DNA of 64,000 bases. Source: Escherichia virus TH35. The position numbers were made by a program, and so were the translations under genes. The stretch's first letter is position 1; the number at the start of each line of letters is the position of its first letter. Location: the sequence record MT446408.1; one strand, written 5' to 3'. The notes under the pieces were generated by a model. That model saw only the letters and a list, made by a program, of their open reading frames with translations. It made no database searches and was not told the origin of the DNA. Shown piece after piece: positions 6,054-63,814 of the stretch.

Positions 6054-6462
6054 CCGTGAGCAGAAATACATATTCGTGCCTTTAAAGAAGCATTCAGAGT
6101 CAGTATTGAAGCTTCAACGAATCGAGTCGATGACTGGTGATGGCGTGCCGGACGTAATCGGCACCAACCGGAAAGGGCGCGGCTTTTGGCTTGAAATGAA
6201 GTTCTTTGAATCGTGGCCTGCAAGGGCCACCACTGCACCTTTCAGAAATGCATTTGAGAAAGGTCAATGCAGCTTTCTTTCTTCGTGGAATGATTGGAAA
6301 TACCCATCATTTGTTCTGCTTAAGGTTGATTCTGAGAAGATGTTTTATTTAGTCCACCCTTCTATTGAATTAAAGCGTTATAATACTGCAGACGTTCAAC
6401 GTGAGATAATCGTGAAGGGAACTATTCATCACATCATCAAGTATTTAGAGGAATTGTCGTGA
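6040..6462 (+). CDS. VRR-NUC domain nuclease (PD-(D/E)xK fold)
   Basis: ORF track 140 aa; GVPDVIG ... GFWLEMK motif arrangement. Confidence 0.7.
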   Translation: MATNNREQKYIFVPLKKHSESVLKLQRIESMTGDGVPDVIGTNRKGRGFWLEMKFFESWPARATTAPFRNAFEKGQCSFLSSWNDWKYPSFVLLKVDSEKMFYLVHPSIELKRYNTADVQREIIVKGTIHHIIKYLEELS

Positions 6463-20678: not shown

Positions 20679-21551
20679 TTATGCCGATGGTGCAACGCCG
20701 CCCGTCACCGTAAATATATCATCACGACTCGCTAAATCATATTCAAGTTGCATGATGACAAATGTGGTGTCGTTCAAGCTTGGGTTTAAGACTGATTTGA
20801 ATTTAACACCTTGTGCAAGCTTCAAATCTGCGTTATACATACAAGTGAAGTCTGCACCCCACTCGTTCCACATCGGTATTCCGACAAATTCCTCAATGAC
20901 CGTAATCTGGTCTGGATTTAGAATTTTGTCTTTATCCTTGACAATTAACGTATCGTCATCAATGTATGCCGCGATGGAGTTGCGTTGATAGTTCTGGATC
21001 TCAAGCAGCAGCGCAGCAGCAACATATGTCGTTCTTCCTGGATTCACAAGTCGCTGATTGTTAATCGACGTATCACAAATAACAGTATCGATGTCCATTT
21101 GTTTTGCAGACCATTCCACAAACTCTTTGAAAGTCGGGTTGGATGGCGCAGCTTGAGTGATGAACTTAGTTCTGTTTATTTGGTTGGTGTAGCAAGTGAT
21201 TCTGATGACAATATTCGGCGGCGGCGCTGTTATCTCAACTGTCGTCACCTGTCCCTTGTATACCAAGTTGCTGCTGATGACACTCCCTTCTCTGTATCCA
21301 GCTTCAATAGTCACGTTGACGTAGTTCGCCGCCAGCTGGCCTTGATCACGCAGACGTTTGTTGAATGCCGTGAAGTTGGAAAGCAGGTACTCTCTCAAGT
21401 ACCCTGTTAATCCTGCGACTTCAATCGTTGCCTTATTCTGAACGGAAAGTGCTGCCTTTTTGATTCGGCATCTAAGCATCAATCCTTCGTCAAGCACTTG
21501 ACTTGTGCCATCCGGCATGGATAAGGTGACTTTAAGGATTCTCTTTTTCAA
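20679..21551 (-). CDS. Hypothetical tail protein downstream of tape measure
   Basis: ORF track 290 aa; position. Confidence 0.5.
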   Translation of the reverse strand: MKKRILKVTLSMPDGTSQVLDEGLMLRCRIKKAALSVQNKATIEVAGLTGYLREYLLSNFTAFNKRLRDQGQLAANYVNVTIEAGYREGSVISSNLVYKGQVTTVEITAPPPNIVIRITCYTNQINRTKFITQAAPSNPTFKEFVEWSAKQMDIDTVICDTSINNQRLVNPGRTTYVAAALLLEIQNYQRNSIAAYIDDDTLIVKDKDKILNPDQITVIEEFVGIPMWNEWGADFTCMYNADLKLAQGVKFKSVLNPSLNDTTFVIMQLEYDLASRDDIFTVTGGVAPSA

Positions 21552-24157: not shown

Positions 24158-24718
24158 TTATATTCCTACTGTTGATTTTATTTTATTATATAACGAACTC
24201 ACAGTTGTAGTCAAACTGACTGGCTCTTTAATAGCCACGCCATTTGACGATTCATCTGCGGACTGTTTAGGGTCAAAGCTTCCTTGAATACTAAATGACG
24301 TCTGTTCAAATGTTATTACAATTGAGACTCCATTCAGGTTTTCTTCTGACTGAGTTATTTCGACATCAGACATCGACATTTTGCTTGCAATTATGCTTCG
24401 AGAAGTTATCGAAAATGTGACTTCATCATTGTCGAATGTATTAATTATGTTTTCAATAGTCGATTGGTCGTTGCAAATTACGTTTAGCGCCATGTGCGCT
24501 GGCATTATTACTTTTGCCGCCTGTAAATTGCTTACTGAGGATGTGCTTGATACTTCCACCACCTGCATCGCCGTTCCAGCAAGGGGAAATTGAGTAGTTT
24601 CTGCTGGTGATGTTATTTCTGCAGACACTGGAGAAAGCCTTGTCCAGACAGGAAGCCCTGTCGACTCGTTCGTTATGGTCAGAGATTGACCAGAAAGCAG
24701 AATCGAAACAAAGTCCAT
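24158..24718 (-). CDS. Hypothetical tail protein
   Basis: ORF track 186 aa; position. Confidence 0.5.
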   Translation of the reverse strand: MDFVSILLSGQSLTITNESTGLPVWTRLSPVSAEITSPAETTQFPLAGTAMQVVEVSSTSSVSNLQAAKVIMPAHMALNVICNDQSTIENIINTFDNDEVTFSITSRSIIASKMSMSDVEITQSEENLNGVSIVITFEQTSFSIQGSFDPKQSADESSNGVAIKEPVSLTTTVSSLYNKIKSTVGI

Positions 24719-25251
24719 CAGAACATCCCCTTGATGCCATTCATCACCTTTGTTGCAACGCCAGTGACGCTGGCAGTAGTCTCTTTTATATAAGCGATGC
24801 CGCGCTCAATGACAGTGGAGTCGGCTGCTTGCGCTGTTTGAATAGACACATCCTGCTGTGTTAATATCTCATGGAAGACCAGTTGTATGGGTTGTGAAGT
24901 TATATTGTCAGCATCTTGGCTGAAATTGTTATTTTGCAGCACCATACGTTCAAATATTAGCCCACGAGAATTTATTGTGTATATCGTGGACCTGTTCTGC
25001 AACATCTTTGCGATTGCGTCGGATGCGCTTTTTGTCTGTGCTATTACAGTCACAGTCAATATTCTAGGCATTTTGACTCTGCCATCGACAATATAGCTTC
25101 CATCTTCCCTTTGGTTCTTGAATATCTTTGCTTGGAGTCTTATTTTAACGTTAACAATTGCCCAACCAAGCGTTGACACTTCCCCAAGGTTGAAGCTTCT
25201 TATTGTGAAGCTTCTGTTGGAAAGACTATATGACAATAAATCGATAGCCAT
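24718..25251 (-). CDS. Hypothetical tail protein
   Basis: ORF track 177 aa; position. Confidence 0.5.
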   Translation of the reverse strand: MAIDLLSYSLSNRSFTIRSFNLGEVSTLGWAIVNVKIRLQAKIFKNQREDGSYIVDGRVKMPRILTVTVIAQTKSASDAIAKMLQNRSTIYTINSRGLIFERMVLQNNNFSQDADNITSQPIQLVFHEILTQQDVSIQTAQAADSTVIERGIAYIKETTASVTGVATKVMNGIKGMF

Positions 25252-25748
25252 TAAATTGACCCCAATATGCTCTGCACCACGCCTTTTGCAATTTGCGATG
25301 TGCTCTGTGCGCCGCCGTAGCTGGCAAACACGAATGTGTATCTGTTTGTCTTACGACGACCGGATTGCTCAATGGAGTCGCCAAGCGGACCGCTGATGAT
25401 GGTTCCGTTTGAAAATGCCACTCTGCCGCCATCAGGATATGTAATAAGCATTGACGTGACATCCTGTATAGGAAGCCACTTGAATCCGCCTTTACGAGCG
25501 GAAAGCAAAAGCTTTAGGTTTATATCGTCTTCAGTGTTTGGGATCACCGCAATGGATACGCGAACGACGGCGGCCTTGTCATAAATACAAATGCCACCGT
25601 CATAAGTAAGTTGATAGCCTACTGATTCAACTTCCTCAATAATTAGCGAATCCTGGTCATCAGACAAAGAACTGATATTCAGCCCAACAGGGAAAGATTG
25701 GAGAGCGACAATTCTAATGCTTGTGCCAAATCCACTAATATTGACCAT
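25251..25748 (-). CDS. Tail tube-like protein, paralog of 26699-27166
   Basis: ORF track 165 aa; N-terminal MVNISGFGTSIRIVA similar to MINVSGFGASIRLVA of the other tube protein. Confidence 0.55.
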   Translation of the reverse strand: MVNISGFGTSIRIVALQSFPVGLNISSLSDDQDSLIIEEVESVGYQLTYDGGICIYDKAAVVRVSIAVIPNTEDDINLKLLLSARKGGFKWLPIQDVTSMLITYPDGGRVAFSNGTIISGPLGDSIEQSGRRKTNRYTFVFASYGGAQSTSQIAKGVVQSILGSI

Positions 25749-26373: not shown

Positions 26374-26699
26374 ATTGCAAACTCCGCTTCAGCAGTTTTC
26401 TGGAATTCAGCCAACTCAGATTCTGACATGTAATATAAATTACAGCCGCCAGAGTTAAAATGCTCATAATCGGGCAAGCTGTCAAAAATAAAGTTGCCGT
26501 ACCCAATCATGAGATATTTATAAGGCACCATTGGTATACCACCAAAACAGCGCACCCCTTGAATCAACAATTCGCCATTGCGGTAAACATCTGCGCACAT
26601 GTGCTCAATTGCGGCGAATATGTGCAGTTGCCAATAAGCACCGTCAACGTTAAAGCTGATATTCTGGTTAGGTACGCTGTCAAGTGGTATTTGATACAT
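26370..26699 (-). CDS. Hypothetical protein (109 aa)
   Basis: ORF track; position. Confidence 0.5.
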   Translation of the reverse strand: MYQIPLDSVPNQNISFNVDGAYWQLHIFAAIEHMCADVYRNGELLIQGVRCFGGIPMVPYKYLMIGYGNFIFDSLPDYEHFNSGGCNLYYMSESELAEFQKTAEAEFAI

Positions 26700-27166
26700 T
26701 ATAAAATCTCTTGGTTGCTCACGCCAGTTTTGACTACGTTCTCAAACTTAAAGCGATATTGACGTGTTTTTACACGACCCTGAGACTGGATGCCAGGAAT
26801 CACTGAACCAGTCGTCAAAGTACCCTTGTTCAGTGTGATGACCATGCCAGAAGGATAGGTCAGAATAAGGGTGATCACGTCTTTCGCAGAGTTCTTGCGC
26901 TTGCCTACACGGTTAGCCGCTGCCAGAACATCTAAGTTTACATCGCTTTCAGAAGTAGGGATGATGTTGACGCCTACTTCAAGAGGGTTGGCACGGTTCC
27001 AGACTACCAAGTCACCGTTCAATCCCATTGCCGCTTCAGAGATTTGAAGATCAGGCGCGTCAATCGGATCAGCATCGTCTGCGAAATCAGAAAGAGTTAC
27101 ACCATTTGGAAAAGTGTTTGATGCCACTAAACGAATCGAAGCGCCAAAACCGGAAACGTTAATCAT
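26699..27166 (-). CDS. Tail tube protein
   Basis: ORF track 155 aa; immediately downstream of sheath gene. Confidence 0.6.
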   Translation of the reverse strand: MINVSGFGASIRLVASNTFPNGVTLSDFADDADPIDAPDLQISEAAMGLNGDLVVWNRANPLEVGVNIIPTSESDVNLDVLAAANRVGKRKNSAKDVITLILTYPSGMVITLNKGTLTTGSVIPGIQSQGRVKTRQYRFKFENVVKTGVSNQEIL

Positions 27167-47747: not shown

Positions 47748-48038
47748 TTATAAGGAGACAATTTTAAAATAAGTTACTTCGCCGCCGAGTTGCGGTACAG
47801 CGATATATTCGCCGCCGATTTCGGTAATCGTATAAACGAAGCCGTTAATCGTTACGCGATAGGATACGATGTCCTCGTCGCGATACTTGTAAAGGTCGAG
47901 GAAGTTGATCGGCTCATAAATAGACTCGATAATCGCGTCGACGTTAGAGAGATAAACGCTCTCTAAGGTTTCGCCAAATACGTTAGAGTTTTCGGAAGTT
48001 TCGACGCGAGCGGAACGGATAGCGGCTAAAGTAATCAT
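47748..48038 (-). CDS. Acidic small protein, paralog A (96 aa, net charge about -10)
   Basis: ORF track; RBS AGGAG; own promoter; similar to 48146-48448 and 48674-48958. Confidence 0.65.
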   Translation of the reverse strand: MITLAAIRSARVETSENSNVFGETLESVYLSNVDAIIESIYEPINFLDLYKYRDEDIVSYRVTINGFVYTITEIGGEYIAVPQLGGEVTYFKIVSL

Positions 48039-48673: not shown

Positions 48674-48958
48674 ATGGCTATTCTTAACGTTTCTTCCATC
48701 CGTAACGCTATCGTCGAGAACTACGGCGTAAAACAAATTTTATCCGAAGTCTACGCCGCGAACGTAGACCAAACTATCGAGGCAGGTGGGGTAACGGTCG
48801 CCGAGGCTTTTAAACTTTACGCGGCGCTACCGGAATCGGACCGCGAAGCCTTCGAAGTAAACGTTAACGGATACTTCTTCGAAGCGGTCGAAATCGGTAA
48901 CACCTTACTCGTTATGGGCGAAGAAGAATTTGAGACCTTCTCCCTCGTCGAAGCGTAA
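48674..48958 (+). CDS. Acidic small protein, paralog C (94 aa, net charge about -12)
   Basis: ORF track; RBS AGGAG; own promoter and terminator. Confidence 0.65.
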   Translation: MAILNVSSIRNAIVENYGVKQILSEVYAANVDQTIEAGGVTVAEAFKLYAALPESDREAFEVNVNGYFFEAVEIGNTLLVMGEEEFETFSLVEA

Positions 48959-49979: not shown

Positions 49980-50040
49980 CTTATAATAATACACTTTCTA
50001 ACGCGTTTATGGTTGTAACCTTCCCCGTCGTATTACCGAT

Positions 50041-50080
50041 GGCCCTAGAAGTGGAGAAAATGTGTTCTAGGGCCGTTTTA
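50041..50080 (+). terminator. Rho-independent terminator
   Basis: Perfect 10-bp stem GGCCCTAGAA/TTCTAGGGCC followed by GTTTTA, then ATAGTGCAAAT. Confidence 0.55.
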
Positions 50081-50093
50081 TAGTGCAAATTGG

Positions 50094-50582
50094 CTAGTGG
50101 CGGGAGAATTGCTCACCTTCTTTGGCCGCCTCTCCAAAATCCTTGTAGAAATCGTCCATAGAACGGCCCATTTTACTATTGCCGTTTTCATCAATCATCG
50201 TGATGCCGTAGATGATATTCAGTTCACGAATAGCATTAAGCTTGGCTGATGCCGCGACTTCTGGATCACGCACAAGCTTGACCAAATTGTGAATTGCACC
50301 TTTTACGCTCCACAAATCCTTTAGCGGCATTTCTTCCATACGCTTTTTGAAGCGCATTTTGTAGTACGGATTGCGTTGTGCGCAAAGGATTCGCTGGCCA
50401 GTGTAGTTATCCGTTGCAACTTCCATTCCAAATACTAGTGCAAAAGCTGCGCGCATGTCATGGCCCTGAATAACAAGGTCAATGAACTCATCGAATAAGG
50501 CCTGATTGTGCTCTGCAAATCGCGGGTCTTCAAAGTCTTCAGGCATCGCTACATAGTCTTGACTCATAGTGCAAAATCCCAT
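50094..50582 (-). CDS. Hypothetical protein (162 aa); motif copies overlap both gene ends
   Basis: ORF track; start codon overlaps an ATAGTGCAAAAT copy; no clear RBS; function not assigned. Confidence 0.55.
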   Translation of the reverse strand: MGFCTMSQDYVAMPEDFEDPRFAEHNQALFDEFIDLVIQGHDMRAAFALVFGMEVATDNYTGQRILCAQRNPYYKMRFKKRMEEMPLKDLWSVKGAIHNLVKLVRDPEVAASAKLNAIRELNIIYGITMIDENGNSKMGRSMDDFYKDFGEAAKEGEQFSRH

Positions 50583-50714
50583 AGTGCAAATTAATAGTGT
50601 GAATTATACAATGGATGAACATTATATTCAAGTGCAGATTGATGTTCATTATGGCTATAAACGTACACAAATCATATTGCGGAATGAATAGCGGACCGTG
50701 GTGCGTGGTGTACT

Positions 50715-51130
50715 GTTTGATACGTATAAAAGAAATCCATCCCTTTCGCCGCTTGTTATGCAAATCAATGACTTAGCCGCTGCTGGCTGGTTTAAGCGTA
50801 TCATGACGTATCATCCGTATTGCCGCAAGTCTTTGTTTTTACTTATATCTTACGGATAATACGTATAAATATAAGTTTAGTATAAGTATGAGGATATGAA
50901 AAAAATTAATTTAAATGTTTTTAAAATGGAGTTTATTTATTTTTGGAGTTTTATATATAACGATGCCCAGTTTTATCCGTATCATCCGTAAGATTAATGT
51001 ACAAGCCAGGCGCGGCAAGGGCTGTACACTGATACGGATAAAAAAACATGACGTATCATGACGTAAGGGTGTACCACTTTGGAAAAGAGGAATCCAGGAA
51101 CGGTGCGGCCTGCAGCCATGATACGCTTAA
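50715..51130. repeat. Second iteron-like array (GATACGGAT and GTATCATGACGTA repeats) flanking a ~90-bp AT-rich core
   Basis: Read directly; shares 21-mer ATCCGTATCATCCGTAAGATT with 34774-34794. Confidence 0.6.
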
Positions 51131-51397
51131 ATTTTAGCCGTATTTTAGGCGTATCAAATGTGTGCAAACAACACGTTTCACGACACTAAAATTTCAATCC
51201 ATAGATAATTCCTAACAAACACCACGGACCAATAGACACGATCTATGAAATATATTTCTAAATATTTCCGCACAATTAATAAATAAAACACAACCTCATA
51301 ATTATTCCATCGCAAAACACGACCCAAACGACAAAAGGCCGCATAAAGCGACCCATTGCACACATTCCATTCTTCAAAACACACAAATCAATGTTCT

Positions 51398-51934
51398 TTA
51401 TCCGCTGACCTTCCAGTCACCATTCCTTTTATCACGCTTCTTTAACTCCGTTTTAATGACATTATTATCCACAATAACTCCTAAACGGCGCAATTCACAC
51501 ATGACCTTGTGGCGATATTGTCGAAGCTTTTTGACGTCCATTGTGCTCCTTGAATAAGATAGTACCATAAAAATAATATCATCATTCATTTTGTAACGCA
51601 TACAAGTTTTATAATGCCTTTTGAAAATTGCATTTACGGCATCTGTTTTCAGCAATTCATCCATTAATTCTGGATTCCCTTCACAGACGTTAATGACCCA
51701 TTCATCCCTTGATTTTGCCGCTTTCAATCCCCTTAGAGTTAATAACTCATATAATGCCTTTCTGCACTTAGAGCAATCACCAATTGTCAAACTTGATTCC
51801 ATTTCTTGAGCATCGGTCAACTCTGTATTGCCTTTGTTGAATTTACCGCACAAGCTGATTTGCTCGCCGTTGTCAAAGTAGTGGGCAAGTTTTGAGTATC
51901 GCGGCTTGCCCCATCCTGCAACGTTACCCATCAC
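51398..51934 (-). CDS. Hypothetical early protein (178 aa)
   Basis: ORF track. Confidence 0.55.
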   Translation of the reverse strand: MMGNVAGWGKPRYSKLAHYFDNGEQISLCGKFNKGNTELTDAQEMESSLTIGDCSKCRKALYELLTLRGLKAAKSRDEWVINVCEGNPELMDELLKTDAVNAIFKRHYKTCMRYKMNDDIIFMVLSYSRSTMDVKKLRQYRHKVMCELRRLGVIVDNNVIKTELKKRDKRNGDWKVSG

Positions 51935-52356
51935 CCCTCCTTAACGACCCGATAAGCAACAATCTTTGCACCAGTCGGGCTTGTGACTTTATCCCATGTC
52001 AAACTATCCGAAGGAACGGCCTCTTTTGATTTATAACCGTTGAGTAATTCAAACTCAACCATCTTCCCAGGCACCGGATTCGCGCCACCAAACCACACGA
52101 TCCACATTTCCTCCTTCGGCGCATCATCATCCACGCCTATAGTAGCAACAACGTCATGCAACTGCTTAACAAGCGCTGACGCATCACGGACCTGTGAGCG
52201 TAATGCGACCAACTCGCGTTGCGCTTCACTATATTTCGCTTCCAGCGCGGCATAGTCCTCATATGCAACAAAACGTCCTTCGTGACTTTCTGGAACAGGA
52301 GTGATGTCGAAATCTTCTGTCGCCACATCGTATGTCAGGTCATAACGTTGTATCAT
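51931..52356 (-). CDS. Hypothetical protein (141 aa) with C-terminal domain shared with 53240-53749
   Basis: ORF track; shared W..W.GG.NPVPGK ... Y.VV.E pattern. Confidence 0.55.
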   Translation of the reverse strand: MIQRYDLTYDVATEDFDITPVPESHEGRFVAYEDYAALEAKYSEAQRELVALRSQVRDASALVKQLHDVVATIGVDDDAPKEEMWIVWFGGANPVPGKMVEFELLNGYKSKEAVPSDSLTWDKVTSPTGAKIVAYRVVKEG

Positions 52357-52573
52357 TTAACTTCTCCAAAATTTCAATAGCGATTTGCGTTTTCTTCTCA
52401 AGAGCTAGACGCAGCATATCAATTTGCAAGTCACGATGGGCCAGTTCAGCGGCAATGTCCGACTTGCTGTAAAGACCTTCATGCGTCATGGCATAGATGT
52501 GGCGCGTATAATAGCCGCCCTCGTCGAGTTGCTCGATGTCACGCTGCCCGACTGCGTATTGTTTATCGGTCAT
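52340..52573 (-). CDS. Hypothetical protein (77 aa)
   Basis: ORF track. Confidence 0.5.
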   Translation of the reverse strand: MTDKQYAVGQRDIEQLDEGGYYTRHIYAMTHEGLYSKSDIAAELAHRDLQIDMLRLALEKKTQIAIEILEKLNDTTL

Positions 52574-52902
52574 GATGCATCCTTAGTTGGATAGAATTTA
52601 GGGTTGTTCTTATAGAACGCCTTGAGCCATGCCTTTGCTTCAGCAATGCTGCTGAACTCTTCTTTGGAGAGTCCGGTGCGGTCCTCACCTGCGACCTTGA
52701 AATGGATGCGCACCTTGAGCCGAAGGTTGGTTGCTCTCGCGTAGTGGCCTTCATAGCCGTCATGATTAAGACTTACTATCGCGGCGAGCATCTCGCAGTC
52801 TTCTTTATCGGGATTGCCGCTGTAACAAATCGGCCAGCCACGACGTTGGAATGACCTGTATTGGCCTGTCGGCTCAGGGTCCACATACCATTTCAATTTC
52901 AT
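52570..52902 (-). CDS. Hypothetical protein (110 aa)
   Basis: ORF track. Confidence 0.55.
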   Translation of the reverse strand: MKLKWYVDPEPTGQYRSFQRRGWPICYSGNPDKEDCEMLAAIVSLNHDGYEGHYARATNLRLKVRIHFKVAGEDRTGLSKEEFSSIAEAKAWLKAFYKNNPKFYPTKDAS

Positions 52903-53240
52903 TCAACCTTCTCCAATTGGAATCTTGTTTCTGGAAAACCTGCGACAAACATGTCACGGCCCTCGACATCACGCTTCACAAACCAACGCATTCCGCTGAC
53001 TACCGTGAAGACAATTTGCCTTCCATCAATAATAAGTCCTTTTGCCTCATAAAGCAAATAGGTTTGACCGACCTTGAAGCTTGAAAGCTCTTTGCTTGCG
53101 CTGGTGCACTTGAGCCGCCACTGGGTGAGATTGGATTCGCTTGCCTCGATGTCAACAACCTTACCGCGCAGCGGCGATGTGCGCTGAAGCTCTTGCATCT
53201 GCTCGTCGAAAGTTAGCTCACGACCTTCTTGCTCTTCCAT
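52899..53240 (-). CDS. Hypothetical protein (113 aa)
   Basis: ORF track. Confidence 0.55.
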   Translation of the reverse strand: MEEQEGRELTFDEQMQELQRTSPLRGKVVDIEASESNLTQWRLKCTSASKELSSFKVGQTYLLYEAKGLIIDGRQIVFTVVSGMRWFVKRDVEGRDMFVAGFPETRFQLEKVE

Positions 53241-53749
53241 TATTCCTCCACGACTTTGTATTTGATGACATCGCCGTCGCGGTGGCGCTCAATCTTCTCC
53301 CAGCGCAATTCATTTGATGCAATCGGCTTTGTCGCTGTAGCACCGTCGCGCAGCATGTAAAGCACCTTCTTTCCTGGTACTGGATTCAAGTCGCCGCCGT
53401 CCCAATCAATCCAGCCGTCATCTGTCGTTGACTTCTCCTTTAAGTGGTCGTACTTCTCACCGATGTGGGCGATTGGCTGGTTGCTTTTGTAAAAGAATCC
53501 AAGTGCAACGTCGTAGCACGGGTGACTATGAGAAAGGCAAATGTCATCACACCAAAGCTCCATGGTGCGCGACTTAAGAGTCATCATATTAGTATACCAC
53601 TCGATGGTGTAGTGGTCATTAAGGTTGCCGACAATATAGAAGTTGCGACAAAAGTGCGCGGCATCATCCGACTTCTCGCGGCTATAGCTTCTGATTGCGC
53701 CTGCCTTTACAGCCATTTCCAATACTGCTTCGAGTTGTTCGATTTTCAT
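53240..53749 (-). CDS. Hypothetical protein (169 aa) with C-terminal domain shared with 51931-52356
   Basis: ORF track. Confidence 0.55.
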   Translation of the reverse strand: MKIEQLEAVLEMAVKAGAIRSYSREKSDDAAHFCRNFYIVGNLNDHYTIEWYTNMMTLKSRTMELWCDDICLSHSHPCYDVALGFFYKSNQPIAHIGEKYDHLKEKSTTDDGWIDWDGGDLNPVPGKKVLYMLRDGATATKPIASNELRWEKIERHRDGDVIKYKVVEE

Positions 53750-53765
53750 TGTTGTCTTCTCCTAT

Positions 53766-53930
53766 TTATTTGATGGATGTTGTGTAAGAATATACCTTCT
53801 TGCGACGCTTTGCCTTGTAAAGACAACGGTCGCCGCTGCGGTTGTAGATGTTAAGCCAGGTACGCTTGCTAATCTTGTACGGCACATGCGGCTTTATGAA
53901 TAGTAAACGGGCTTTAAGGTTGGATGTCAT
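53766..53930 (-). CDS. Small basic protein (54 aa), not in ORF track
   Basis: ATG 53930 to TAA; hand translation MTSNLKARLLFIKPHVPYKISKRTWLNIYNRSGDRCLYKAKRRKKVYSYTTSIK; RBS weak. Confidence 0.3.
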   Translation of the reverse strand: MTSNLKARLLFIKPHVPYKISKRTWLNIYNRSGDRCLYKAKRRKKVYSYTTSIK

Positions 53931-54225
53931 AATAGTATTTTCCTTCTCTCATATTCTTTTTAATTCCTTGTAATGCCTCGCGCCCCTTCTTTGTCATCAC
54001 CACAAATGAATATAGTCTTGGGTCTTTTTCTCCTTGAACCGCCCAATCAACAAGCCCAAGGCGAAACAAAACAGGGATTGATGGTGCATTGACGTCATAA
54101 AACGGCGATGGGCGCTTCTCATGAGCCTTCTTGCAATCGCCACGCAACATATATCGCGTCCCGTCTTCCATACGGTATAATGTTTGGACTTGTGCTAAAC
54201 TTAGTTTCATTGCTGTCTTCTCCAA
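53914..54225 (-). CDS. Hypothetical protein (103 aa)
   Basis: ORF track. Confidence 0.5.
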   Translation of the reverse strand: MEKTAMKLSLAQVQTLYRMEDGTRYMLRGDCKKAHEKRPSPFYDVNAPSIPVLFRLGLVDWAVQGEKDPRLYSFVVMTKKGREALQGIKKNMREGKYYYDIQP

Positions 54226-54392
54226 ACTGCATGTAATGTTTTCTGGTCAAACTTGGACAGCGTTTCACGCTCCGAAGCCTTAAGGAAGCGCGTGCCAAAG
54301 AACAGCATGCCTTGCGGCGTTTTAACGAGAGACACGCCTTTGTTACGGTAAAAGCTTACCATTGCTGAAGCGTTATGGACTTCGGTACTCAT
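54207..54392 (-). CDS. Hypothetical protein (61 aa)
   Basis: ORF track. Confidence 0.4.
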   Translation of the reverse strand: MSTEVHNASAMVSFYRNKGVSLVKTPQGMLFFGTRFLKASERETLSKFDQKTLHAVWRRQQ

Positions 54393-54694
54393 AAATTCCC
54401 TCCAAACGTTGCAACACGGATGGCGCGACGCTCAAATGCCAACATAGGATTAAGGCCGTCGGCACAAGTGATGAATGCATCATCAGCGACAAGGTCGTAA
54501 CCGCCGACGCAAAGAATAAATGTATCATCACTATTCTTTAATAGCATGATTGCCGCTACACCGTCCTTTTTATTCTTAAAGAAGAATACTGGCTCACCGC
54601 CTTCTTGAGTCTCCTTGAACTCTTTAATGGCACCACAGTTCACGGCTTCTTGCAAAGTGTTCAAAATCTTTTTCTTCATTGCTTCGGTACTCAT
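54389..54694 (-). CDS. Hypothetical protein (101 aa)
   Basis: ORF track. Confidence 0.55.
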   Translation of the reverse strand: MSTEAMKKKILNTLQEAVNCGAIKEFKETQEGGEPVFFFKNKKDGVAAIMLLKNSDDTFILCVGGYDLVADDAFITCADGLNPMLAFERRAIRVATFGGNL

Positions 54695-54993
54695 AGCTCA
54701 CCCTCTTTAAAAACAAATCCGCTGATAACAGATTGATAGTAGTTCACGCCGCGCACCTCTACAACCTTGCACCGATGAGCCTGACCCTTGTATTCTATCC
54801 ACCAGACTTCCATGTCAGGCAAGTTGTTGCGACGCGTCAACCAGCCGTGAAACAGCTTGTATGTTTCGCCGACCTTAAAAGGTTTCAGCGTACCGTAAGA
54901 ATCAACCTTGAATGCGCAGACAACATCTTTGCTGTCTTTGTGTACAGCGTCATGAAATAATCCGCTTCTGCCAAACCTTTCGTCGTAACTCAT
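54691..54993 (-). CDS. Hypothetical protein (100 aa)
   Basis: ORF track 54691-55053; start moved to internal ATG 54993 with RBS AGGAGA. Confidence 0.5.
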   Translation of the reverse strand: MSYDERFGRSGLFHDAVHKDSKDVVCAFKVDSYGTLKPFKVGETYKLFHGWLTRRNNLPDMEVWWIEYKGQAHRCKVVEVRGVNYYQSVISGFVFKEGEL

Positions 54994-55071
54994 AATCATT
55001 TCTCCTTTGCTTGATGAACTAAGTATAATGCAGGCAAATAAAAAGGCAAGCATTTAGCTCACCTTTTTGAA

Positions 55072-55332
55072 TTAAATATTCTTCGCCTCTTCGTGAAGGC
55101 CGACCGACCTTAGTTTGCGCCGCAAGTAAGCTTTCTTTTCGCTCTCCCGCCCTTTCGGAGTAACGCGCCAGCGTAATGTGTTCTCCAGATTCTTGCGTCG
55201 GTTGTGCTCGTCGAGTAGCTCTACCAGTGCCTTTGCGTCGTCGAGTGTTAACACCACGGGCCGCGACCCATTAACGGCTTGTCGAAGCTTCCGCGCGGCA
55301 ACGGCTAACTTAGTCATCGGACCCTTGTTCAC
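55072..55332 (-). CDS. Hypothetical basic protein (86 aa)
   Basis: ORF track. Confidence 0.55.
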   Translation of the reverse strand: MNKGPMTKLAVAARKLRQAVNGSRPVVLTLDDAKALVELLDEHNRRKNLENTLRWRVTPKGRESEKKAYLRRKLRSVGLHEEAKNI

Positions 55333-55712
55333 GGCAACTCCTTATTCATCGGTGTGATAGACAACACCTTCACTTCAGTGATGTCACGGTTGTATTCGCG
55401 CTTGATTTGTAGAATCTGAGATTGGATGCGCGCAATAAAGTGCGGCGTGATTCCTTCCTTAACGTTAATCCAAGCCGCAAGCTGAATTGAGTCGATGTCG
55501 CTTCTCAATGTTGTTGGACAGTAAATCGTACTTGGTGCGCCGTAAGAACGTTGCACTTCATAAGCAGAAGCTTTGAATGACACCAAGAACATTCTTTCTT
55601 CAAGTTGGCTTTCGCTATTAGGATTCTTATCACAGTTAGTCATGTGCTGCACAAACTCTTCGTGTGGAAGGTGCATCACATCGTGGCAGTAAGGGCAACG
55701 CTTCATTCTCAT
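55329..55712 (-). CDS. Zinc-ribbon-containing protein, paralog of adjacent gene
   Basis: ORF track 127 aa; N-terminal MRMKRCPYCHDVMHLPHEEFVQHMTNCDKNP. Confidence 0.55.
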   Translation of the reverse strand: MRMKRCPYCHDVMHLPHEEFVQHMTNCDKNPNSESQLEERMFLVSFKASAYEVQRSYGAPSTIYCPTTLRSDIDSIQLAAWINVKEGITPHFIARIQSQILQIKREYNRDITEVKVLSITPMNKELP

Positions 55713-55713
55713 T

Positions 55714-55998
55714 TCACACCTCGTGCAAGAAAGATAAAGATTTAATGCAGACTATTTCTTTGCCAGACACTTCCTTGATTGTATCCAGCAGGCTTTCATA
55801 CGCCTTTTTGGTGATCACCATTTCTTTCGTAGTGACGATGCCTGTTGCGCCTGAGCCGTCTTCTGCTTCCGCATGATAATGATAATAGTAACGTGTCGAG
55901 TTTTCAGGATTAGCATCACAAACGTTAACGTGATGTAAATATTCTTCAGCAGTAAGCCGCATCGTGGACAAGCAATGGGGACATCTTTGCATCTTCAT
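55714..55998 (-). CDS. Zinc-ribbon-containing protein, paralog of adjacent gene
   Basis: ORF track 94 aa; N-terminal MKMQRCPHCLSTMRLTAEEYLHHVNVCDANP. Confidence 0.55.
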   Translation of the reverse strand: MKMQRCPHCLSTMRLTAEEYLHHVNVCDANPENSTRYYYHYHAEAEDGSGATGIVTTKEMVITKKAYESLLDTIKEVSGKEIVCIKSLSFLHEV

Positions 55999-56231
55999 TT
56001 TGCATACTCCATAGCATATTGCTGCAGCTTGAATGCAGCATGTTGTAATTGTTTACGACGCTCATTCAATTCTTTCCATTCTTCTTCAGGACAATTTAGA
56101 GAGTATGCCTTGTTTGCAATCTTGATTAGTGATAAATGCGTTTGTTGAAAGCGCGATACCATGCGCAACTCATTACGCTTATTGAATGGCAACTTACCCA
56201 GCGCGGCGTTCATAATTGCACCTCGACACAC
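55995..56231 (-). CDS. Hypothetical protein (78 aa)
   Basis: ORF track. Confidence 0.5.
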   Translation of the reverse strand: MCRGAIMNAALGKLPFNKRNELRMVSRFQQTHLSLIKIANKAYSLNCPEEEWKELNERRKQLQHAAFKLQQYAMEYAK

Positions 56232-56527
56232 GATTCACTAGCCTCGAAGCTCCAGCCTTCCAGACCGACTTCGCCGCAGTAACGCGCCATTGCACGCTCG
56301 TCCAAAAACCAACCGTGATATTGCTCTATATACTTTGGTTTTTCCGAATAACAGTGAATGACTCCGTCGTCATCAATGGCCACGTAACGCGTGCCAGGAG
56401 CGACTGGGACAACAACGTCTGGGTGGGCGATTGGCCAAGGCTTGATGTGTACAGCTGTGTCCAACTTAACGTTTGGCACCCTTGAAAGGTCTTTGTAAGC
56501 ACCCTCGTCCATTCCTAAGTAAATCAT
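56210..56527 (-). CDS. Hypothetical protein (105 aa)
   Basis: ORF track. Confidence 0.55.
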   Translation of the reverse strand: MIYLGMDEGAYKDLSRVPNVKLDTAVHIKPWPIAHPDVVVPVAPGTRYVAIDDDGVIHCYSEKPKYIEQYHGWFLDERAMARYCGEVGLEGWSFEASESCVEVQL

Positions 56528-56612
56528 GATTCACCTCACTTGTTAGTCTTGATGAAAAGAGTATAAGTATTGATAAAAGAAAAGGCAAGCATTTAGCTCA
56601 CCTTTTTGATAT

Positions 56613-56945
56613 TCATTTTACATAGTGGAGTAGGTCAATCTCTATCTGGTCACGCGTCCTTGTTATCTTTGTATCACCCGTCCGGTGAGAGAATCGATAG
56701 ATGGTCAACTCTCCGTCATTTCCTCTATCGAACTTCATGCTGGCTAGTCGACAAGCATATATTGCATTAAGCTTTTCGCCATAAGACAGAAGATTAAAAG
56801 TCAATACTGTGTTGCCCATTCTTGCATTTTCTTTTATGCACTTCTTTAAGAAGTAATAAGAATCAGCAAAAGCATTGGCCTTCTTCCACACTTCTTTTAT
56901 TAATCCACGCTCATGCGCGACGAGTATCTGATCACGGGTCATCAC
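56613..56945 (-). CDS. Hypothetical protein (110 aa)
   Basis: ORF track. Confidence 0.55.
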   Translation of the reverse strand: MMTRDQILVAHERGLIKEVWKKANAFADSYYFLKKCIKENARMGNTVLTFNLLSYGEKLNAIYACRLASMKFDRGNDGELTIYRFSHRTGDTKITRTRDQIEIDLLHYVK

Positions 56946-57181: not shown

Positions 57182-57525
57182 ACATTCTCCACGGGTCGAC
57201 GGATGAGTTTGCGTAATCCTTCGGGCCATACCTTCTTGATCACGGCTTTCGCTGGGCTGGATGAAAGTTTCTTCAGCTTCAATAGGACACATCCTTCATC
57301 ATCGTTCGGTTGTACCTGGATAACGACGCGCGCTTGTCGGTCGATGACCATGACATCGCCAATGCGAATGTCTTTTACCAACACGCCCATCTCCTTCGTG
57401 CCGGATACGCCGTTGATGTGATCAAAACCTTTTCGCAGCGACTTCACTCTTTCTTCTCCTGCCATTTCTCTGACACGTTTCTTAATCTCTGCGCCAAACA
57501 ACACTTCGTCTTTAACATGAGCCAT
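57178..57525 (-). CDS. Hypothetical protein (115 aa)
   Basis: ORF track. Confidence 0.5.
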   Translation of the reverse strand: MAHVKDEVLFGAEIKKRVREMAGEERVKSLRKGFDHINGVSGTKEMGVLVKDIRIGDVMVIDRQARVVIQVQPNDDEGCVLLKLKKLSSSPAKAVIKKVWPEGLRKLIRRPVENV

Positions 57526-58006
57526 GGTCGAGTACCTTATAAAGAGTGCAAGAAGGACTGTTGAATTCCCTTAATGCGTAAGCCACGTTCAAGCTGCCAG
57601 GTTCTTTCTTTGCGTTTGTCACTTCCATGTGTTGGCAGCCGTTTATACTGTATCGTCTTACTACAACAGCATTGAAAATCTGACTGCCGTAATAGACGCA
57701 GACGATAACATCACCGACTTCTATTTTATCAGCCGGAACAGGCTTAAGGCGCGGCTTTTTATCAACATAAGTCTTGATAGGAGCTTGTACGCAACGAGAT
57801 TGATGGTAAATAGGTCTTGTTGCACCCTTGACGTTGCGCTTCAGCAATTCATCAATGGCATAGTCAACATCATCACTTTCGAACTGCTTCATAATGAAGC
57901 CTCTTACCTTTACGCGAAGTTTAACATCTGCTTCTGCACGTCTCAATGCGTGTAAAATTTCTTTAGCTTCTTCTTTCTTTAACATTAAAGGGCGATGGAT
58001 GATCAT
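57512..58006 (-). CDS. Hypothetical protein (164 aa)
   Basis: ORF track; RBS AGAGGT upstream. Confidence 0.55.
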   Translation of the reverse strand: MIIHRPLMLKKEEAKEILHALRRAEADVKLRVKVRGFIMKQFESDDVDYAIDELLKRNVKGATRPIYHQSRCVQAPIKTYVDKKPRLKPVPADKIEVGDVIVCVYYGSQIFNAVVVRRYSINGCQHMEVTNAKKEPGSLNVAYALREFNSPSCTLYKVLDHGSC

Positions 58007-59103: not shown

Positions 59104-59751
59104 TTATCCTGTGGCCTGCATATTGCGTACATACTTCTGCTCTAATGAATAGATGAAGTCGGCGACAGTCAATCCCTTCGTGTGCCATTCATACATGGTG
59201 AAGCCTGTATTCAGGAAATAGCCGCGCACCTTGTCCATCGCTTCAGCTTCCTCCAGTGAAGCCATCAGCGCGGCGACGTTGTCATAAGAAGGTACAAATC
59301 CCTTCTTGCGTAGCGCATTGCGCAAATCTTTAGTTCTGAAGCCAATCTTGCAAGGGTCATCGCGGCCCGTGGATGATGCAACCTTTGGAAGAGCAAGGAA
59401 CTCTTTGAGGAACATTGCAATGTTCAAGTCGCCTGCATCATCAAGCTTCTGGATTCGGTTGCGACCGCGACCCTTGAATTCACTCGCACGAGGGTGAGCG
59501 CCAAAACAGTGCGCCCCTTCCAGTTTAGGGTCAATGATCATCACATCTTTCCCAATGCGCAGCTCTACGTAGTAAAGATAAGACTCATCGACAAGCTTTG
59601 TGCGCTTGCAAGTGATTGAGTCCTTATCATAACCAAAGCCGCGCAACACGGTTGAGATCATTCGGTTCATTTCTTCGCCGTGAACGTCACTTTCTTTGTT
59701 CAGTTCACCAAGATGTTGAAAGAATTTAGCGATGTTGATTGCTTTATTCAT
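59104..59751 (-). CDS. Hypothetical protein (215 aa)
   Basis: ORF track. Confidence 0.6.
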   Translation of the reverse strand: MNKAINIAKFFQHLGELNKESDVHGEEMNRMISTVLRGFGYDKDSITCKRTKLVDESYLYYVELRIGKDVMIIDPKLEGAHCFGAHPRASEFKGRGRNRIQKLDDAGDLNIAMFLKEFLALPKVASSTGRDDPCKIGFRTKDLRNALRKKGFVPSYDNVAALMASLEEAEAMDKVRGYFLNTGFTMYEWHTKGLTVADFIYSLEQKYVRNMQATG

Positions 59752-61421
59752 CAGAATTCATCCTTATCTCTTCCCAAAGAACGTTTACGCTCAATAACCT
59801 TCTTCAAGAATTCAATATCTTCAGGGTCAGACTCATCGCGGATAAGATACGCTAAGATGGTCATCAAATCAGAAATGTATTCTCCTGCTTCATTCTTAAT
59901 CAGCGGCGTAAAGTACCCGCGCTGGTTGCGATAGGTTGCAGGCTCAAAACCAAGCTTCGACATGTGCGGCGCAAGGGTACGTGAGAAAGGCGACTTGCCG
60001 CACTTAGCTCTGAAGCCCATAGCGATTGCACCACTAGTGATGTGCCAGCGTCCGCTGTGATGTCGGTCATAAGGCGCGGTAATGATGACTTCAACAAGGT
60101 CGTTGTCGACCATCTCATCACGGATAACGCCGCGAGCGCGTTCCATTTCGTTCTTACTGAACTCAGTAAGCATACGAGATGTTTCACCAACAAAGGCATT
60201 GTAACCTGCTTCACCGTGCTTCTCCATCCACGCAGCGCACTCAGCCATCAGTTGCCAAACGTCTTCTTTCAAAGTGGAAAGGTCAGCTTGGAAGTCTTTA
60301 GACCAGTTCGGTTGCCCGTCCTTGTCAGCAAGTTGTCCAACAAAGATAGGGTACACACGACGGTTGCCCGTGTCGTCACGCTGCATACCTGCGTATTCGT
60401 TGCCGTCCATGATAGCAATCCACTGGCGTGGTTTAACCTGCGTGTCTTCAAATTTGAAGTCCAGGTCATCTTCCGTCTTAGTCAGGAATGCTTTCATGTT
60501 TTCGATGTCAGCCTTTTTAAAGCCTGTCATCTCGCCAACGTTCGCGATAATTGAGCGACCCGTAATAGCTCGCAAGAACGGGTTGAAGTTCTGCGCGGCC
60601 AAGTTCAACGGAATCGGTGTTGCGTGGCGGTCGTTCATAATAGCTTCGCAAAGTAGCTTACTAAAATAACTCTTCCCTGCGTTCTGGCCGCCGATGAGCG
60701 CAATGGAGATTGGCGCTTGACAGCCAGGGTTGGTCAGGCGGTTATAGAGCGATAGCCAAAAATACACACCGATTTGTCGGTTTAACTCTGTATCGAACGG
60801 TCGGAATAGCTCGATAAGGTATTTCTCAATGCGCGCAGTACCGTCCCATTCAGGCAGCTTCTTGTAGAAGAAGTCCATCAGGTCATCGCGCTGATAACGC
60901 ATGGCCCATTCCTTATAGGATTGAGCGACCTGACGTGAGTTTGGGTTGGACAGGCCTGCTGCGTCGACAGCGGCAACTATCTCTGTGACTTCCAACGTCC
61001 GGTCGGTGAATGTTTCTCCGCGATGGTCGACTAAGCGTCCACGAAAAGTATCTTTGTGAGGGAATGGGACAATGCCGCTTCCCTTATCAAACAACGCGTC
61101 GAAAACCGCATAACGGTTCATGTCACTCGTCCGGTCCGCCTGAAGAACAAAATCATCTTTCGTCGGTTTGTAGTGAGGGAACTTGATTACCTGAAGTGAG
61201 GCGAGCAAACGTGCTCTTTCAACCAAGTCTTCTTCACCGTAGCATTCCATGCGCTCTGCATCTTTCTCAACAGCCTTATGCTGGAGGCTGATTTTAGCTC
61301 TGGCGCCTTGCTGCTCTGCCGCTTGCATTTCTTCTGAAACACCAGCGTCTTGAATTTCGTCAAAGATTGCACCAAATTCATCACCTGTATCCTCTGGAAG
61401 ATTGTCATGTTCAATTGACAT
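59751..61421 (-). CDS. P-loop NTPase of the primase-associated D5/VirE-like helicase type
   Basis: ORF track 556 aa; Walker A IALIGGQNAGKS; directly downstream of primase gene cluster. Confidence 0.55.
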   Translation of the reverse strand: MSIEHDNLPEDTGDEFGAIFDEIQDAGVSEEMQAAEQQGARAKISLQHKAVEKDAERMECYGEEDLVERARLLASLQVIKFPHYKPTKDDFVLQADRTSDMNRYAVFDALFDKGSGIVPFPHKDTFRGRLVDHRGETFTDRTLEVTEIVAAVDAAGLSNPNSRQVAQSYKEWAMRYQRDDLMDFFYKKLPEWDGTARIEKYLIELFRPFDTELNRQIGVYFWLSLYNRLTNPGCQAPISIALIGGQNAGKSYFSKLLCEAIMNDRHATPIPLNLAAQNFNPFLRAITGRSIIANVGEMTGFKKADIENMKAFLTKTEDDLDFKFEDTQVKPRQWIAIMDGNEYAGMQRDDTGNRRVYPIFVGQLADKDGQPNWSKDFQADLSTLKEDVWQLMAECAAWMEKHGEAGYNAFVGETSRMLTEFSKNEMERARGVIRDEMVDNDLVEVIITAPYDRHHSGRWHITSGAIAMGFRAKCGKSPFSRTLAPHMSKLGFEPATYRNQRGYFTPLIKNEAGEYISDLMTILAYLIRDESDPEDIEFLKKVIERKRSLGRDKDEF

Positions 61422-62731: not shown

Positions 62732-63814
62732 CTATTTTATGCCACCTGCGCGACGATTTATCATATCAAGTTGATTCTCAATATAAGGCATGACTACTGC
62801 TTCAACAAAAGCGGTCCAGCCTTTCTTGCCTTCCCCTTTCCGGTGACAGTCGTGAGCACAACCGAAAACGAATTCATGTTCAGCACCAGGGATGGGGCCG
62901 CGAAAATAAGCGCCGTATGGGTCGCCGTTGGTGTGCTCTTCACCCCAAGGGCAAATGATTCGGCATTTACCTGACATGTTTTCAACCACATCGCCATCAG
63001 ACCCTTCGCCCATCTTATTGCGCGCAAGGATTTGCTGGGCTATCTTATACCAAACAGCATCATATTTGTATTCGTCAACGTCGATTTGAATTTCACGCTT
63101 TTGCGGCATAACGACGTGGAAACCGAAGGCTTGGCAAATCTCTTCGATTGTGTAGCGCAAAGAATAGTCTGCATGGACAAGTCGGCAGCGGAACGGGTCG
63201 CCGTTCTCATCGACATATTTATAGGGGCCGTCGTGAGTCACGCGCTTGTTGTTGATGCACCCAGGAACACGGCCCACGCGCGTCACGTCTTTAATCGTAT
63301 TGTCGCCGCCCTTCTTGAGTACCATGTTTACGAAAGACCCAAGGAATGCTTTGAACTGAATAAGATGGTCAATTGGCTCTTTAAAGAAATACCACAGCTG
63401 GTGGTTGTTCGGCGAAGTCTCAACGATGACGGTTGGCTTCAGACGCTCGAAAAAGAACTCCAAATCTAAATCGCCTTTAGACCCTTTACCGTGACCGATG
63501 TCGTCGACCATCATCGCCATGCCATGACCAAAGGCCGATTCCGTGCGCCAGTATCGCATCTCGCCTGTCTTTGGGTTGGGAGACTTACGCATTGAACTTA
63601 TGCAGGCGTAACCGTTCTGATGTTGCATCAGCGGCTTGCCAAGCTTCCAAGGCTTAGGCCAGAAGCTGCTGTTAATCTTTTTGCCGCGCTCGTCGGTCTG
63701 CACCGTTGCTTCAGGCGCAAACACGGTCATGACGCGTTCATCTTCTGGAATGCCTCTTTGGAGTTCCGTCAAAAACTCTTCGATTATTTTTGCTTCTTCT
63801 CTTAAACTAGCCAT
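62732..63814 (-). CDS. Archaeo-eukaryotic-type primase (primase-polymerase-like) with C-terminal zinc-binding region
   Basis: ORF track 360 aa; AEP-like motifs MMVDDIGHG, ETSPNNHQLW, RVGRVPGCINNK; Cys/His cluster CPWGEEH ... FGCAHDCH. Confidence 0.65.
   Translation of the reverse strand: MASLREEAKIIEEFLTELQRGIPEDERVMTVFAPEATVQTDERGKKINSSFWPKPWKLGKPLMQHQNGYACISSMRKSPNPKTGEMRYWRTESAFGHGMAMMVDDIGHGKGSKGDLDLEFFFERLKPTVIVETSPNNHQLWYFFKEPIDHLIQFKAFLGSFVNMVLKKGGDNTIKDVTRVGRVPGCINNKRVTHDGPYKYVDENGDPFRCRLVHADYSLRYTIEEICQAFGFHVVMPQKREIQIDVDEYKYDAVWYKIAQQILARNKMGEGSDGDVVENMSGKCRIICPWGEEHTNGDPYGAYFRGPIPGAEHEFVFGCAHDCHRKGEGKKGWTAFVEAVVMPYIENQLDMINRRAGGIK

Follow-up and report, generated by a model that had tools for sequence, protein, structure and literature searches.

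DUF551 (PF04448) and similar domains from the ea and nin regions of lambdoid phages are small, stand alone or at the C termini of modular accessory proteins, and are encoded in arrays near replication genes. Among small zinc fingers, the CCHC type (three Cys ligands and one His) is known in a classical beta-beta-alpha form, and cassette-type mosaicism, in which conserved flanks enclose a swapped divergent segment, was described for the receptor-binding domains (RBDs) of the T-shaped tail fibres of Wifcevirus phages (PMC11990801). Each of these is resembled in some respect by a locus in Escherichia virus TH35 (sequence record MT446408.1), of which a stretch of 64,000 nucleotides (nt), here termed the window, was analysed. 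The locus comprises two pairs of small genes within one array (Table 1). The first pair encodes proteins of 141 and 169 amino acids (aa) that share a C-terminal domain, here called the W-domain, which likewise occurs alone or C-terminally in modular proteins encoded near replication genes. The second pair is adjacent and encodes proteins of 127 and 94 aa that share an N-terminal CCHC zinc-finger module.

Both similarities were found to be true homology. For the W pair, the C-terminal 77 residues were aligned by BLASTP at 36% identity, with an E value of 1e-12 pairwise and 1.5e-10 in the window-wide all-against-all comparison; hhalign with ortholog profiles returned 99.5% (E=2e-22), and the score was equalled in none of 2000 shuffles. 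For the zinc-finger pair, the N-terminal 36 residues are 42% identical (pairwise E=4e-11, window-wide E=9e-9, hhalign 96.9%), and 0 of 5000 shuffles equalled the score. In the all-against-all comparison of about 100 open reading frames (ORFs) of the window, the two pairs rank second and third, behind two tail-fibre gp32 paralogs. The profile-profile comparison of the 25 array genes, with orthologs from 13 Wifcevirus genomes (the window phage and 12 others, otherwise about 90% identical), yielded these two pairs as the only significant ones, the next best reaching 18.7%. The first-pass annotation, which had proposed paralogous domain families with a common C-terminal domain in one pair and an N-terminal zinc ribbon in the other, was therefore right at the domain level, and both similarities are significant on formal alignment; the zinc module has the ligand pattern of a CCHC finger.

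The homology does not extend beyond these modules. The N-terminal parts of the W pair have no demonstrable relation (17% of shuffles score as high), and the same holds for the C-terminal parts of the zinc-finger pair, where a likeness hinted at by MAFFT was rejected because 27% of shuffles score as high. Each pair thus has one module in common and not the whole gene. Two likenesses noticed by eye, between the N terminus of 53240-53749 and 54389-54694 and around a "FKVG.TY.L" motif in 52899-53240 and 54691-55053, were also rejected, with hhalign probabilities that did not exceed 10%.

The W-domain is a unit of about 60 residues with the signature WxxW-GG-x-[N/C]PV ... R.G ... W.H ... DI[I/V]AYRVV. 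The WxxW, GG, [N/C]PV, central W and DI[IV]-x-Y-R/K-VV elements are invariant or nearly invariant in the variant alignments of both proteins and are present in both window copies, while conserved W, R, H and D positions persist within the otherwise variable centre. The two genes sit 0.9 kb apart, and both copies belong to an NPVPGK motif subtype that also occurs outside Wifcevirus. A syntenic ortholog of the 141-aa gene was found in all 12 other genomes and an ortholog of the 169-aa gene in 11 of them. Both loci are syntenic in 11 of the 12; the Mansfield genome has one, its match to the 169-aa gene covering the N-terminal part only (95% identity over 63% of the query), without the W-domain.

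Scans of the window proteins and of family members yielded no Pfam or NCBIfam model for the W-domain. Its sole library cover was by PHROG 9174, 16943, 26870 and 11995, all labelled "unknown function", which the window proteins match at E values of 1e-6 to 1e-5; all 147 of the top family representatives match PHROG 26870, 9174 and 16943. These PHROGs are automatic clusters with no name, function or domain limits, and the domain is split across several of them at differing profile positions. A 64-aa query consisting of the domain only found no match in a word-indexed protein database, and an alignment query succeeded. The profile of 14 Wifcevirus variants matched 493 proteins in a database of 5.8 billion, and an exhaustive HMMER search returned 10,376 cluster representatives at E<=1e-3, with 4,033 at E<=1e-10. 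Many of these representatives bear 2-9 tandem copies. In a less biased hit set, 40% of the proteins are stand-alone domains (<=80 aa) and 51% carry the W-domain at the C terminus, often behind a helical region; N-terminal regions rich in helix-favouring residues were counted in 17 of 53. The domain was found in at least 95 sequenced phages of Klebsiella, Pseudomonas, Escherichia, Burkholderia (e.g. Bcep781 gp63), Aeromonas, Edwardsiella, Vibrio and others, and a scan of a genome collection with a consensus-type alignment located it in genomes of Alpha-, Beta- and Gammaproteobacteria. The W-domain is a very large unannotated family of phage and prophage proteins in Proteobacteria, occurring alone, in tandem or fused to other modules.

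A mostly-beta model of the domain was obtained with AlphaFold2 from an alignment of 119 sequences, and was confident by the predicted local distance difference test (pLDDT) and the predicted template modelling score (pTM) (Table 1). This model and the stand-alone forms support a domain that probably folds by itself. Foldseek searches of viral predicted structures gave template modelling (TM) scores of 0.7-0.85 to family members in unrelated phages, while a sequence search of the PDB returned noise only (a de novo TIM barrel, an aquaporin) and no solved structural relative. The fold search gave no match to known nucleotide-binding domains. The acidity of the domain speaks against classic DNA binding: the median net charge is -3, and 79% of the copies are negative.

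The recurrent annotated fusion partners of the W-domain are nucleotide-metabolism modules only, namely dGTP_diPhyd_N, DUF3310 and DUF6378 (six members each) and one HD domain. Fusions identified by PHROG label include a nucleotide kinase and a dATP/dGTP pyrophosphohydrolase, and those in the viral structure library a SaV-like or OP1 diphosphohydrolase. Fusions to nucleotide enzymes make up about 4-5% of a sample of W-domain proteins that is biased towards repeats. Single cases with a winged helix-turn-helix and a few of T7-lysozyme type were also seen. The same setting recurs in two unrelated phage lineages, whose W-domain genes sit in arrays where small unannotated genes follow Prim-Pol or AAA_25 replication genes.

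The opening motif of DUF551 (DGWI...PV) resembles that of the W-domain. Kinship was rejected, since no W-domain protein had a Pfam DUF551 match and hhalign gave 1.8% against the DUF551 protein of L017, a metagenomic contig from an unrelated phage. On that contig one small-gene array contains both domains, the DUF551 gene (5808-6275) being the fourth gene downstream of the W-domain gene. The two families thus share a genomic niche. A separate observation concerns the 141-aa protein, in which residues 8-32 (TYDVATEDFDITPVPESHEGRFVAYEDY, with PVP and VAY motifs) make a weak partial second match to the W-domain hidden Markov model (HMM). This could be the degenerate remnant of a second copy, or chance.

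The centre of the W-domain is hypervariable. In the 169-aa gene, the N-terminal module is 80-98% identical in nucleotides to the other Wifceviruses. A stretch of about 180 nt then shows only 35-68%, beyond which the last 30 nt or so and the next gene are again at 80-100%. Bas100 shares the window allele of this cassette (96-100%). In the 141-aa gene, the N-terminal module and the W cassette assort independently, WFC having another N-terminal module with the same cassette and FEC19 the reverse. At least five cassette types exist at one W locus and at least four at the other, and 10 combinations were counted in the 13 genomes. Bas98 and Bas99 both have types 3/6, Bas100 has 2/8 and Bas101 has 2/9. 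The central segment of about 180 nt is thus swapped as a recombination cassette among these phages. Since the edges of the domain are locus-specific and conserved, they are able to act as recombination anchors. The arrangement resembles that of the tail-fibre RBDs in its conserved flanks and in a divergent centre swapped between near-identical genomes; unlike the RBD cassettes, it sits in a small acidic non-structural protein of an accessory array close to replication genes.

A diversity-generating retroelement was considered as the source of this variability and was rejected, since no second copy of the W segments was found in the window. A blastn search of these 64 kb, beyond which a few kb of the genome lie, found no template repeat for either W-domain coding segment (best off-target match 32 nt, E of about 0.1). 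Nor was a reverse transcriptase recognised; a YxDD motif is present in one ORF of at least 200 aa in the window (20679-21551), which was taken no further.

Neighbouring genes that lack the W-domain also vary. Three of them (51398-51934, 56210-56527 and 57512-58006, all on the minus strand) have discrete, strongly divergent alleles in the 13 genomes, with identities to 51398-51934 of either 93-98% or 35-40%, for example. Two others (53914-54225 and 54207-54392, minus strand) are presence/absence genes, each found in only four to five of the 12 other genomes and in differing subsets. The array as a whole is therefore mosaic.

The module common to the zinc-finger pair reads M-[RK]-x-x-R-C-P-x-C-x13-H-x3-C-[DE]-x-x-P, with no exception at C6, C9, H23 or C27 in any variant of either paralog type. 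In its C-x2-C-x13-H-x3-C spacing, and in a predicted fold where a hairpin precedes the helix bearing the His and the final Cys, the module is like the classical beta-beta-alpha CCHC fingers. The likeness is one of pattern and predicted fold, not of membership. The best PDB sequence match was the finger of the Gn tail of Crimean-Congo haemorrhagic fever virus (PDB 2l7x), which has the same CPYC...H...C pattern but falls short of significance (E=0.18). A similar ligand spacing is known from UBZ4- and NEMO-type fingers. The ligand set here is CCHC, whereas the Lar, Ogr/Delta and Com families use four Cys ligands. No Pfam or NCBIfam match to these last three families (phage zinc-ribbon regulators and restriction alleviation) was found, nor could the module be placed in any named zinc-finger family: the only Pfam hit was DUF7501, at 17.3 bits against a cut-off of 27 bits, and NCBIfam gave nothing. 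The 127-aa protein has Wifcevirus homologs at >=75% identity and none outside Wifcevirus-type contigs. From a shallow alignment, the best of five AlphaFold2 models reached a pLDDT of 79.7 and the other four 60-70; in the best model, DSSP placed strands at 4-5 and 12-13 and a helix at 17-26, as expected of a beta-beta-alpha finger if the model is right.

The 94-aa gene was present in six of the 13 genomes, and relative to Bas99 it corresponds to a clean indel of 286 bp (55715-56000). This upstream copy is dispensable. The two modules are 54% identical in nucleotides, with codon positions 1 and 2 matching at 22 of 36 each and the third at a near-random 14 of 36. This pattern points to an old duplication kept by selection on the protein, and the adjacency of the genes, with a gap of 1 nt, fits tandem duplication. 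The pair therefore looks like an old tandem duplication. In P0148, a protein of the 127-aa type from a 69-kb Wifcevirus-like contig, the N terminus of the finger (CPYCLKTMQLSVESFMDHVASCDKSP) falls between the two paralog types, which hints at exchange or recombination between the paralogs.

The first-pass annotation had explained both pairs by repeated duplication and divergence, of the kind expected in a growing set of host-takeover or anti-defence genes. That both pairs arose by repeated local duplication in this phage lineage is, in our judgement, unlikely. The part of the claim that stood is the zinc-finger pair, whose genes are adjacent and share the start-proximal module. For the W pair, the short distance between the genes, the common NPVPGK subtype and the retention of both loci across the genus are compatible with local duplication, and allelic hypervariability is the expected product of an arms race. 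However, the two window copies are 37% identical with a mutual score of 115, while each scores 117-136 against clearly non-Wifcevirus homologs, and the motif subtype is not limited to the genus. Neither copy is thus nearer to its partner than to proteins from outside the genus, and the two N-terminal modules show no relation. This gives no support to a recent local duplication, and the genes are better regarded as two carriers of a promiscuous mobile domain. Array-wide, only two pairs exist in 25 genes. Because both W loci are syntenic across Wifceviruses, the two-gene arrangement is older than the sampled diversity of the genus; its origin was either an ancient duplication or the independent capture of a mobile domain. 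As to the anti-defence set, searches of the four proteins with Pfam, NCBIfam and PADLOC gave nothing above threshold and no likeness to any characterised takeover or anti-defence protein; sub-threshold matches to SIR2, Gemini_AL3 and DUF2600 were rejected as noise.

The four genes belong to a densely packed array of 25 genes on the minus strand, running from about 59751 down to 51398. RepB-primase-like and VapE-like genes lie upstream of the array in the same direction, and a terminator-like hairpin closes it (Table 1). All four ORFs were verified at the coordinates first proposed for them; each begins with ATG, and a GGAG or GAGG site precedes the start by 6-10 nt. The segment 51300-58100 is 88-94% identical in nucleotides to Wifcevirus myophages of E. 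coli and Shigella, among them vB_EcoM_WFC, SP13, Eco4M-7 and the BASEL phages Bas98-101, so that the window comes from a Wifcevirus-like E. coli myophage. In these relatives all genes of the matched region bear the label "hypothetical protein". A sigma-70 promoter scan was at chance level (30 sites against 27 expected), and for the early region named in the first-pass annotation the layout of the array downstream of replication genes is no more than suggestive. The Wifcevirus literature yielded no expression or gene-function data on the array region and nothing on the four genes or the W motif.

Table 1. Coordinates of the two gene pairs, their modules and the landmarks of the array (positions in the window).
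Feature	Coordinates	Strand	Basis and remarks
141-aa gene	51931-52356	-	ORF with ATG start, GGAG upstream; variable N-terminal part, helical linker (probably coiled-coil), C-terminal W-domain
W-domain of 141-aa protein (residues 81-141)	51934-52116	-	HMM match; PHROG 11995, 9174 and 16943; hhalign 99.5% to 169-aa protein
Predicted helical/coiled-coil segment of 141-aa protein (about residues 32-70)	52147-52263	-	Putative; sub-threshold Pfam DivIC match at residues 32-68 (E=0.031)
169-aa gene	53240-53749	-	ORF with ATG start, AGGAG upstream; conserved N-terminal module, C-terminal W-domain
N-terminal module of 169-aa protein (residues 1-104)	53438-53749	-	phrog_21861, E=2e-49; median 88% identity among genomes
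W-domain of 169-aa protein (residues 109-169)	53243-53425	-	HMM match; AlphaFold2 pLDDT 85.7, pTM 0.71; median 59% identity among genomes
Hypervariable recombination cassette in W-domain of 169-aa gene (gene nt about 300-480)	53270-53449	-	Drop in nucleotide identity to other Wifceviruses
127-aa gene	55329-55712	-	ORF with GAGG site; N-terminal CCHC zinc finger and predicted beta-beta-alpha-beta domain; in 13 of 13 genomes
CCHC module of 127-aa protein (residues 1-31; C6, C9, H23, C27)	55620-55712	-	Invariant ligands; predicted hairpin and helix 17-26
94-aa gene	55714-55998	-	ORF with GGAG upstream; similar CCHC finger, shorter and different C-terminal part; accessory
CCHC module of 94-aa protein (residues 1-31)	55906-55998	-	42% identity to 127-aa module; hhalign 96.9%
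VapE-like primase/helicase gene	59751-61421	-	Pfam VapE-like_dom, E=1.6e-28; annotated as P-loop ATPase or DNA primase in WFC and BASEL phages
RepB-primase-like gene	62732-63814		Upstream of array, co-directional
Terminator-like hairpin closing array	51336-51354	-	Consensus scan: 7-bp stem with 5 GC pairs, then T-run; directly past last gene (51398-51934)

A second terminator-like hairpin lies inside the array at 56580-56606 (minus strand), between 56613-56945 and 56210-56527, in the same place as a putative terminator annotated in WFC and WFH; the array may therefore form more than one transcription unit. Between the array end and the gene at 50094-50582 is an AT-rich stretch (50600-51400; G+C fraction 0.405 for 50001-52000) with short ORFs only, whose length and gene calls vary across related genomes. 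Two promoter-like sites with 10 of 12 positions matching were seen at 50603-50648 on the minus strand. Elsewhere in the window, the top paralog pair is 25251-25748 and 26699-27166 (both minus strand; 33% identity over 141 aa, E=4e-26), both members matching Pfam E217_Gp32, "tail fiber protein gp32" (E values of 1e-53 and 1e-60), with a weaker adjacent pair nearby (24158-24718 and 24718-25251, E=1e-5). A possible third pair of small-gene paralogs, 47748-48038 (minus strand) and 48674-48958 (plus strand), is 27% identical over 81 aa (pairwise E=1e-5, window-wide E=0.003), and neither member matches Pfam.

The descriptive part of our interpretation, comprising the homology, the module boundaries, the W-domain family and the confidence of its fold, the cassettes and the indel, is held with high confidence. 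The full interpretation, in which these are real accessory genes with shared modules and with binding roles deduced for them, is given an even chance. Its functional core, that the W-domain is a binding or adaptor module, was deduced from architecture and is put forward tentatively, as a possibility rather than a probability. On this hypothesis the ligand of the W-domain would be a protein or some other component of the cell. Aromatic residues and the conserved strands at the two ends of the domain would make up the scaffold, and the variable centre would be the recognition surface. Multivalent display might be achieved through the linker helix of the 141-aa protein and, in other family members, through tandem repeats, and the domain would bring to its ligand, or regulate, whatever module is fused to it. 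In Wifceviruses, homologous recombination swaps the variable centre as a cassette, with the conserved edges as anchors. The CCHC proteins may be small zinc-dependent binders of nucleic acid or protein. Early expression of the four genes, and any part for them in host takeover or counter-defence, are at most inferred.

Several points weigh against these binding roles. The hypervariability may reflect the general mosaicism of the array instead of selection on a recognition surface, as neighbours without the modules are also allelic. The conserved W, R, H and D residues would fit a small-molecule pocket just as well, and the W family has no member with a known ligand, partner or phenotype. Confidence in the model of the 127-aa protein is limited to one of five, zinc binding is predicted, and with promoter sites at chance level the expression timing rests on the layout.

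It was considered whether the W-domain instead binds a nucleotide or other small molecule, acting as a sensor or regulator of the fused nucleotide enzymes and as a sponge when alone. The annotated fusion partners that recur would all be accounted for, as would the residues kept inside the variable centre and the commonness of stand-alone 60-aa forms. We nevertheless consider this quite improbable, because the nucleotide-enzyme fusions are a small minority, the fold resembles no known nucleotide-binding domain, and the centre is freely swapped between near-identical phages, which would not be expected of a fixed pocket. An equally doubtful alternative is that the variability is neutral, the domain being a tail under loose constraint that serves oligomerisation or stability, with a mosaicism that results only from general recombination in the accessory region. 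Allelic and presence/absence neighbours that lack the domain are in keeping with this, as is the family-wide conservation of core residues alone. It is opposed by the retention of the domain across a family of more than 10,000 clusters, with stand-alone and multi-copy proteins among them, and by the 169-aa gene, where variation is concentrated in the domain while the N-terminal module stays 88% identical. That the similarities arose by chance, or that the ORFs are not genes, was refuted by the tests run and is given next to no weight: the common segments are short (36 and about 60 residues), but E values of 1e-10 to 1e-22, shuffles that never reach the scores, ribosome-binding sites, conservation in 13 or more genomes, codon-position purifying selection and thousands of W-domain homologs all stand against it.

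Returning to the binding module, its most far-reaching form would make the W-domain an unrecognised and widespread phage recognition scaffold, with a fixed beta-frame and a surface cassette exchanged by recombination so as to maintain binding to, or escape from, host proteins that change rapidly, for instance sensors or effectors of immunity. The two W-domain genes would then be counter-defence or trigger-escape factors, a proposal that we ourselves regard as a long shot.

Two module-sharing gene pairs in a mosaic accessory region are in themselves ordinary phage biology. However, phage accessory arrays hold most of the unexplained phage genes, and many recent counter-defence proteins come from such arrays. 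Delimited here is a compact domain whose family numbers more than 10,000 sequence clusters and whose predicted fold is confident; it has neither a curated family model nor a solved relative. In Bas98-101 of the BASEL collection, the W-domain centre is available as naturally swapped alleles on a near-isogenic background, which amounts to a ready genetic system for finding the recognised target.

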